Virus record (IMG/VR): IMGVR_UViG_2721755725_000007
Length of the DNA stretch: 37,725 nt
Direction: 5' to 3' (one strand)
Source: a virus
Lineage: Duplodnaviria; Heunggongvirae; Uroviricota; Caudoviricetes
Shown here in pieces: positions 9,608 to 9,652 of the stretch (position 1 is the stretch's first letter; every line of letters begins with the position of its first letter). The notes beneath the pieces were generated by a model. That model did no database searches. It had not been told where the DNA came from and worked only from the letters and a program-made list of their open reading frames with translations. Both the position numbers and the translations under genes were made by a program.

Positions 9608-9652
9608 GGGCTGTAGTCCCCGTGTGTCATTCAGGCTTCCGGACTACAGCCC
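9608..9652. repeat. perfect 12-bp inverted repeat (GGGCTGTAGTCC / GGACTACAGCCC) with 21-nt spacer, about 45 bp upstream of the esterase gene
   Basis: Arms at 9608-9619 and 9641-9652 are exact reverse complements. Confidence 0.6.

Follow-up and report, generated by a model that had tools for sequence, protein, structure and literature searches.

An inverted repeat upstream of the prophage esterase gene nanS-p probably forms a conserved RNA stem-loop on the sense strand

Several described systems resemble the element studied here, an inverted repeat located just upstream of nanS-p, a prophage sialate O-acetylesterase gene, in a 37,725-nucleotide (nt) stretch of Caudoviricetes DNA (IMG/VR record IMGVR_UViG_2721755725_000007), the whole of which is referred to below as the window. 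With ompA-type 5' stem-loops and RNase E processing modules, the predicted nanS-p hairpin shares a stable untranslated helix that lies 5' of the ribosome-binding site without overlapping it, an A/U-rich linker and a second hairpin (here a terminator), and selection on pairing rather than on sequence. It differs from these stabilizing elements by its unusually large loop (21-28 nt) and by a linker that in the window lacks the RNase E consensus. The RNase III signals of phages (lambda N-leader, sib, and late-leader; T7 R1.1-type) are likewise helix-defined elements placed between modules of an antiterminated transcript, and a mid-stem internal loop is also part of the nanS-p hairpin consensus. 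However, they span ∼20 bp, whereas the nanS-p stem has 13 bp (7 + 5 in most phages) and no sequence homology to lambda. Rho-independent terminators have in common with the hairpin a G+C-rich inverted repeat in a late-operon intergenic region, here beside a true terminator, but the hairpin has no U-tract, its loop is 21 nt long (11-28 nt elsewhere; typical terminators have ∼3-8 nt), and it is not listed by the terminator scan. Phage lambda itself (L102) has two elements that are similar to the nanS-p leader in layout without being homologous to it. These are a long interrupted hairpin at 987-1064, directly after tR' (-33 kcal/mol, z = -4.1), and a 13-nt inverted repeat at 1317-1368 (92% complementary, 26-nt loop), which ends 18 nt before the start of S and abuts the sdi hairpin. 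The nanS-p hairpin is therefore new as an example but familiar in kind, being a conserved stem-loop in a leader; it does not represent a novel type of system. No published description of it was found in the literature on nanS-p, on the small RNAs (sRNA) of Shiga toxin (Stx) phages and on Stx flanking regions, or by searching for the sequence string, and a permissive scan of 7000-12500 with Rfam 15 (E <= 1) returned nothing at 9600-9660.

The original prediction, made from the letters of the window, described a perfect 12-bp inverted repeat at 9608-9652, GGGCTGTAGTCC N21 GGACTACAGCCC, about 45 bp before the ATG of the esterase gene. The repeat is present there letter for letter and extends by one complementary base on each side. 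Its 5' arm (TGGGCTGTAGTCC, 9607-9619) and 3' arm (GGACTACAGCCCA, 9641-9653), both read on the + strand, are thus 13 nt each and 100% complementary, and they enclose a 21-nt loop that is pyrimidine-rich and A-poor (CCGTGTGTCATTCAGGCTTCC, 9620-9640). Measured from the 3' arm, the distance to the nanS-p ATG at 9696 is 42 nt, in keeping with the ∼45 bp of the original prediction. The bases directly after the stem are CTCCATATCTG and contain no U-tract; sequence and terminator scan agree on this point with the original prediction, which had noted that no T-run follows and had argued against a terminator, as do the 21-nt loop and the absence of the hairpin from the terminator scan list. This 13-nt repeat is the longest perfect inverted repeat of the whole 37.7-kb window, in which its arm sequence has no other copy. 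Chance expectation was determined on windows resampled with a first-order Markov model, in each of which all perfect inverted repeats with a loop of 3-60 nt were counted. Arms of 13 nt occur on average 0.035 times per window (at least once in 2% of resamplings; analytic value 0.033), and arms of 12 nt 0.125 times (at least once in 8%; analytic value 0.13), which bears out the claim that such a palindrome is improbable in 37 kb. A chance origin of the 13-nt repeat is therefore unlikely, though not impossible. Structure prediction, which had been proposed as a check, folds the 60-nt stretch as RNA at -28.0 kcal/mol (z = -5.98 versus shuffles).

For comparison, we collected nanS-p upstream regions from annotated phages, from 240 IMG/VR loci (retrieved with three N-terminal queries) and from a few genomes. 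The hairpins fall into classes that differ at up to five positions per arm and nevertheless retain complementarity. Class A is that of the window, with a perfect stem. Class B (933W type, CGGGCTGTAGTCT...GGACTTCAGCCCG), the commonest variant, has a U·U mismatch in mid-stem. Class C is found in Shigella phage 75/02 and class D in AU6Stx1, and classes G, H, and I come from IMG/VR only. Stem length goes up to 15-17 bp (classes C, D, and H), and the commonest class has 7 + 5 bp. With its perfect 13 bp, the window shows the most fully paired form, the helix center (positions 8-9) being often mismatched in the sequences compared. Classes other than that of the window fold at -13 to -29 kcal/mol, mostly with z < -3. 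In contrast to the arms, the loops vary freely. Their length in phages is 11, 17, 20, 21, 25, or 26-28 nt and their sequences are unrelated between classes, with a pyrimidine fraction of 0.67-0.82 in all of them. Not every nanS-p allele has this hairpin. In three loci with nanS-p alleles starting MSIK… (L015, L055, and L098), the same terminator is followed by a different, weaker hairpin (ATGACCTGCCACTGGCAGATGGTCAT), in a stretch that folds at -16 kcal/mol, which is not significant versus shuffles. The layout of a terminator followed by a hairpin thus recurs with unrelated sequence. Two further classes of nanS-p have A+T-rich upstream regions with no hairpin, and in one IMG/VR locus (L155) an apparent end of the insertion sequence (IS) IS1 (…GTAAGTTGGCAGCATCACC) lies ∼20 nt 5' of the Shine-Dalgarno sequence and replaces both terminator and hairpin. 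An IS3-family insertion is found in the same spacer in phage PA28 (L013).

Whether the arms change in a compensatory fashion was assessed on two alignments of the hairpin only, since RNAalifold gave a misleading consensus on a whole-leader MAFFT alignment in which three class D rows were misaligned. A covariance-model alignment was also excluded from pair counts because it mixed matches to the + and - strands of the palindrome. In a MAFFT alignment of 25 distinct hairpins, in which the class D 5' arm is misplaced, 91.3% of cells are paired and three pairs have changed on both sides (0/500 shuffles), and pairing falls to 26-48% when the 3' partner is slid by 1-3 columns. The second alignment is ungapped and contains 21 distinct arm pairs from phages and IMG/VR contigs, with the loops trimmed; a 4-nt internal-loop insertion of class H was removed, and one variant of class B, whose 5' arm has a single-base bulge, was omitted. 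Here, 90.1% of cells are paired (83.4% in shuffles), two-sided changes are seen in 6 of the 13 pairs, and the covariation score reaches 0.352 (0.219 in shuffles), values that none of 500 shuffles reached in any of the three cases, with a significance inflated by the relatedness of the sequences. Slid controls show 32-49% pairing. RNAalifold, to which no structure was supplied, also returns this helix, with 7 bp and 4 bp flanking a 2x2 internal loop and with compensatory changes in five pairs.

The imperfect pairs are strongly one-sided. Sorted by position and type, they comprise 13 G·U cases on the + strand versus two A·C cases, the latter being wobble pairs on the - strand. By hand count of the 21 arm pairs, 49/273 cells are G·U on the + strand, and pairing would drop from 90% to ∼74% if the - strand were read instead. 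Pairing is thus conserved on the sense strand of the mRNA, as for stabilizer or boundary hairpins. The one-sided G·U pairs, the compensatory changes and the free loop together point to an RNA helix on the nanS-p sense strand, in agreement with the RNA structure option of the original prediction. As read from these compensatory changes, from the + strand G·U pairs and from the fixed distance to nanS-p, the RNA nature of the helix is well supported, and we consider it likely that this sense-strand helix is functional. Transcription of the leader on that strand is expected on induction, nanS-p being upregulated by 1-2.4 log with mitomycin C, in parallel to stx2a (PMC10462455).

The hairpin is tied to nanS-p. 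The original prediction had proposed a search for the same repeat upstream of other prophage nanS-p genes, and when class A and class B arms were sought in IMG/VR in any context, 120 loci were returned. A nanS-p ATG lies 42-44 nt 3' of the hairpin in 119 of them, the last being cut by the end of its contig, and the upstream terminator is present in 118 of the 119 loci with nanS-p in this orientation. These figures show that the hairpin belongs to a nanS-p module, which consists of terminator, hairpin, leader, and nanS-p irrespective of upstream genes. Indeed, the module is preceded by stx1, stx2, sRNA genes of the AgvB, AsxR, or EcOnc03 type, or other genes. A dispersed repeat (of the REP/BIME kind, i.e. 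repetitive extragenic palindromes or bacterial interspersed mosaic elements) would look different, as there is one copy in the window and 119/120 IMG/VR occurrences sit at the same nanS-p position. In Stx1 and Stx2 phages, the spacer between stxB and nanS-p is homologous to the window from ∼9484 or 9570 to the nanS-p start. This spacer matches 347 phage records, mostly Stx1 and Stx2 converting, of which 225 cover at least 80% of the query, and the 661-nt stretch 9100-9760 has matches in 3343/5426 complete Escherichia coli genomes, in up to 21 places per genome (roughly 14,000 copies in total). In strain Sakai, the copy in prophage Sp17 (L253; NC_002695.2, about 3486238-3486345, - strand) is identical to the window. 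In the Sp10 copy (L252, NC_002695.2, 741-793), four bp of the 3' arm (AGCC) are duplicated and a T of the loop is replaced by A, leaving an 11-bp helix. A covariance model derived from the hairpins has no match in lambda or in the nanS-p classes that lack the hairpin, and no significant one in the rest of the window, where a single weak hit was returned (24189-24216, E = 0.42).

The leader in which the hairpin sits has a recurrent anatomy. An intrinsic terminator at 9573-9600 (+ strand; stem-loop 9573-9594), identified by the terminator scan, has a 9-bp G+C-rich stem (AGGCTGCGC/GCGTGGCCT), a 4-nt loop and T6; it ends 6 nt 5' of the hairpin and is present in almost every locus. The probable -35 region of the leftward AgvB gene described below overlaps with the terminator stem. 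Between terminator and hairpin is the A/U-rich, single-stranded linker ATTTCT (9601-9606, +), a candidate endonuclease entry site as far as its sequence goes. Most other variants have an RN|WUU-like motif at this place (CGUAUU or CGAAUU, compared by eye), and this is weak evidence, an RNase E motif in the linker being too frequent by chance to serve as such. The hairpin is followed by a spacer (9654-9677, +) that is G-poor and, in the window, also C-rich, is predicted to be unstructured and has a near-constant length among the loci scanned. The ribosome-binding region (9678-9692, +) may form a mini-hairpin, TCCC-GGCC-GGGA in the centroid fold, whose 3' arm provides the first bases of GGGAGGA (9686-9692), the Shine-Dalgarno sequence. 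Its CCC and GGG are invariant, and the 4-6-nt loop reads GGCC, GACC, GCCA, TGCC, or GGAAAG among phages; being invariant, the stem shows no covariation. In lambda, the sdi hairpin before S is similar to this mini-hairpin. The esterase gene itself (9696-11642, +) encodes 648 amino acids (aa) with DUF1737, SASA, and DUF6645 domains, an architecture that agrees with its earlier naming as nanS-p. Homologous phage records label it yjhS or 9-O-acetyl-N-acetylneuraminic acid deacetylase.

Taken together, these features suggest the following scheme. RNA polymerase modified by Q, coming from the phage late promoter, would read through the terminator at 9573-9600, and the hairpin would then be transcribed within the untranslated nanS-p leader. 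Selection probably acts on the helix itself (13 bp in the window), neither on the loop nor on the DNA palindrome. In combination with the terminator hairpin and the A/U-rich linker, the stable helix would mark, post-transcriptionally, the cut site of the long late transcript; it would cap or protect the nanS-p/lysis mRNA, and it would shield the nanS-p ribosome-binding site from erroneous pairing, both with the variable sequence further upstream and with the hairpin's own pyrimidine-rich segment. A processing or stability boundary is the explanation that best fits the layout, in which a terminator hairpin, an A/U linker, the hairpin, a ∼25-nt G-poor spacer, and a strong Shine-Dalgarno sequence follow each other. 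Stated in full, i.e. as a stem-loop in the leader of the late transcript that is selected as a helix and acts as a structural boundary, this scheme is our tentative preference and falls somewhat short of being probable. The role in processing, stability, or insulation, which is read from the anatomy of the leader only, is proposed with slightly more hesitation still.

Insulation of the ribosome-binding site can be modeled. In silico scrambling of the 5' arm lowers the predicted accessibility of the Shine-Dalgarno sequence from 0.40 to 0.11 in class B, from 0.41 to 0.26 in class C, from 0.33 to 0.20 in class D and from 0.32 to 0.21 in class G, a weak hint that the hairpin may have this effect. 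Several observations weigh against the boundary scheme. There is no such drop in accessibility in class A, the class of the window, whose linker also lacks the RN|WUU RNase E motif of most other variants. As a 5' protective hairpin must sit within a few nt of the 5' end of the RNA, the scheme presupposes such an end close to the stem. The mid-stem U·U mismatch of the commonest (933W type) variant indicates that maximal helix stability is not what is selected. Some nanS-p alleles are found with no such hairpin (the A+T-rich classes, the class with a different hairpin and the IS insertion), so that the hairpin is not essential for nanS-p expression. Finally, the sequences compared are related, which inflates the shuffle-based significance of the covariation.

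Other explanations account for part of the same evidence. RNase III might cut the stem, splitting the moron/sRNA part of the transcript from the nanS-p/lysis part and altering the stability or translation of one or both. The helix being under selection, but neither loop nor sequence, is what such an element would show, as are the small mid-stem internal loop of the consensus, known in general from several phage RNase III sites, the longer stems (up to 15-17 bp) of classes C, D, and H, and the long lambda hairpin at the equivalent place after tR'. However, E. coli RNase III substrates typically span about two helical turns (∼20 bp), and the helix has 13 bp here and 7 + 5 in the commonest class; in addition, the lambda hairpin is not homologous and the hairpin covariance model finds nothing in lambda. 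To judge by its title, a paper cited in PMC7547250 reports RNase III sites in lambda late RNA. Cleavage of the stem by RNase III is on balance unlikely. A translational regulator, in which either the loop with its many pyrimidines or the 3' portion of the hairpin would pair with the Shine-Dalgarno sequence or AUG of nanS-p and tune its translation, is suggested by a possible 18-nt pairing of 9625-9642 with 9684-9701 (72% complementary), by pyrimidine-rich loops with CUUCC- or UCCUC-like motifs in all classes, by the fixed distance from hairpin to ATG, and by loop–Shine-Dalgarno pairs in RNAalifold, although these come from a flawed alignment. Against this stand the duplex energies between loop and ribosome-binding site, which are equaled or bettered by a fraction of 0.21-0.96 of shuffled loops and of 0.05-0.94 of length-matched random segments of the window, and the occurrence of TGTCAT/ATGACA and TGCCAT/ATGGCA in all four combinations, hence with no covariation. 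The Shine-Dalgarno sequence itself is invariant. A loop pseudoknot or anti-Shine-Dalgarno pairing was therefore rejected as unsupported, its energies being at background and TGYCAT/ATGRCA not covarying, and we regard translational tuning by the hairpin as quite improbable. Control of the esterase gene by the repeat, as originally predicted, stays plausible as judged from the leader sequences, but its form as masking of the ribosome-binding site is unsupported in silico.

The hairpin might also act at the level of transcription, as a back-up terminator, a pause hairpin or part of a Rho loading site that would help to keep nanS-p and the lysis genes silent in the lysogen whenever unmodified polymerase escapes the terminators upstream. 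It lies after two + strand terminators (9456-9479 and 9573-9600), the spacer behind it has many C and few G, a U-rich stretch occurs a few nt 3' of the stem in some variants of class B, and a further terminator-like hairpin (12255-12284) precedes the holin gene. Yet no U-tract is found directly 3' of the stem in the window or in classes C and H, a 21-28-nt loop is unfavorable for intrinsic termination and no conserved helix is required for Rho to load, which makes such an auxiliary signal decidedly unlikely. A site acting as DNA had been offered in the original prediction in two forms, an operator and a recombination site. The perfect palindrome of the window, its location ∼60-105 bp upstream of the AgvB start and its place in a known moron-insertion, mosaic zone (PMC4104026) would suit an operator of a dimeric regulator for nanS-p or for the leftward AgvB, or a recombination or module-junction site. 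The variants do not. The spacing of the arms ranges over 11-28 bp, with a 4-bp duplication in one arm in Sakai Sp10; the arms drift and change in compensatory fashion, 6 of 13 positions switching their Watson-Crick type; and 49/273 cells are G·T, strongly one-stranded, which breaks the symmetry of the DNA. A dimeric DNA-binding protein requires fixed spacing and conserved symmetric half-sites, and a recombination core a short fixed spacer. Variable spacing, drifting arms, and asymmetric G·T positions thus argue against both forms. No sigma-70-like promoter is predicted on either strand of 7000-12500, and hence none near the repeat on the + strand. The arms are single-copy in the window and lack a short spacer of fixed length between them, and the breakpoints of homology are located at the terminator or upstream of it, not inside the repeat. 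We consider a DNA-level site extremely unlikely. Absence of any function, the repeat being a chance or relic palindrome (e.g. a decayed terminator) carried along with nanS-p, would be compatible with the lack of the hairpin in some nanS-p alleles and with the imperfect stem of the commonest variant. Nevertheless, the chance expectation of 0.03, the six pairs changed on both sides and the one-strand G·U pattern over diverged classes make a functionless palindrome very unlikely.

The spacer upstream of nanS-p also contains sRNA genes. A full-length STnc100 homologue at 9293-9485 (+; Rfam, 144.5 bits versus a gathering score of 47) has its own terminator (stem-loop 9456-9473 plus T-run, overall span 9456-9479). 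It is convergent with the anti-GcvB sRNA AgvB at 9487-9548 (-; Rfam, 96.5 bits), and the two terminators, 9456-9479 (+) and 9512-9493 (-), are ∼13 nt apart. The repeat is ∼59-105 bp upstream of the AgvB start at 9548 (-), this start being inferred from the Rfam match. Such a prophage sRNA cassette between moron and nanS-p, with STnc100/PasD-like sRNAs and AgvB/AsxR anti-sRNAs (PMC4104026), occupies the same spacer in the same phages as the hairpin and is, like it, multi-copy in genomes of enterohemorrhagic E. coli (EHEC). The hairpin, on the other hand, is outside these genes, 59 nt beyond the AgvB start, and has neither an Rfam match nor its own terminator, and its complementarity to the neighboring sRNAs is not significant. 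Indeed, pairing of the leader with AgvB, with the STnc100 homologue or with an Esr41-like element (see below) is not above that of shuffles. The Hfq-bound RNA EcOnc06 ("5' ECs1961" in Table S2 of Tree et al. 2014) was considered as a candidate for the hairpin and rejected after allowing for a coordinate shift in Sakai; with the shift between Sakai record versions at Sp17 inferred from that at Sp10, EcOnc06 (∼177 nt) is probably the STnc100 homologue. The part of this table that we consulted, from which sites <100 bp from coding sequences had been filtered out, lists no Hfq peak at the hairpin.

The surroundings identify the region as the late region of a lambdoid prophage that has no stx genes, as judged from its gene content. 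In E. coli O157:H7 TW14359, the Prokaryotic Genome Annotation Pipeline (PGAP) annotated an identical stretch with, in order, the Q antiterminator, a small open reading frame (ORF), a DNA methyltransferase, tRNA-Met and nanS-p (named there DUF6645 domain protein), followed by DUF1378, DUF826, holin, a hypothetical protein, and lysozyme. The tRNA-Met, at 9147-9217 (+) in window coordinates, was not called by ARAGORN, and its Rfam tRNA match is partial (9148-9207, 37 bits, model positions 7-64 of 71); this element may be a degenerate phage tRNA. A small ORF that runs over the repeat (9532-9696, TTG start, 54 aa) was rejected as a gene because loop lengths in homologues differ by non-multiples of three, and its frame is thus not kept. 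Just 3' of nanS-p is a weak Esr41-like match at 11644-11720 (-; 30.9 bits versus a gathering score of 102), which includes a terminator-like site at 11664-11652 and sits in the esterase-holin interval, the reported place of PasA/PasC-type sRNAs (bioRxiv 10.64898/2026.05.13.724894). Further downstream, a strong terminator-like hairpin (∼12255-12294, +; 13 pairs plus T-run) lies ∼35 nt 5' of the holin gene. It implies that the late operon has several internal terminators, which Q-modified polymerase would have to override.

The gene downstream of the hairpin gives the finding its interest. It is the conserved gene that separates the Shiga toxin genes from the lysis cassette; EHEC strains have many copies of it and owe to it their ability to use mucin-derived O-acetylated sialic acid. 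A covarying leader helix suggests that nanS-p, and perhaps also the lysis genes transcribed after it, may be controlled post-transcriptionally, beyond antitermination by Q. Were this demonstrated, toxin release would be separated from toxin synthesis by an extra control point, and Rfam would gain a new cis-regulatory RNA motif. In its most far-reaching form, which we regard as rather unlikely, the hairpin would be a dedicated, undescribed cis-regulatory RNA motif of the late operon of Stx-type lambdoid prophages, with several copies in most EHEC genomes. Read by RNase III, RNase E, or an RNA-binding protein, it would uncouple the toxin or moron part of the late transcript from the nanS-p–holin–endolysin part and thereby set esterase level and the timing of lysis and hence of toxin release. 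The hairpin would matter mainly if it sets esterase level or lysis timing in Stx phages; otherwise, it would be an ordinary leader stem-loop of limited consequence.
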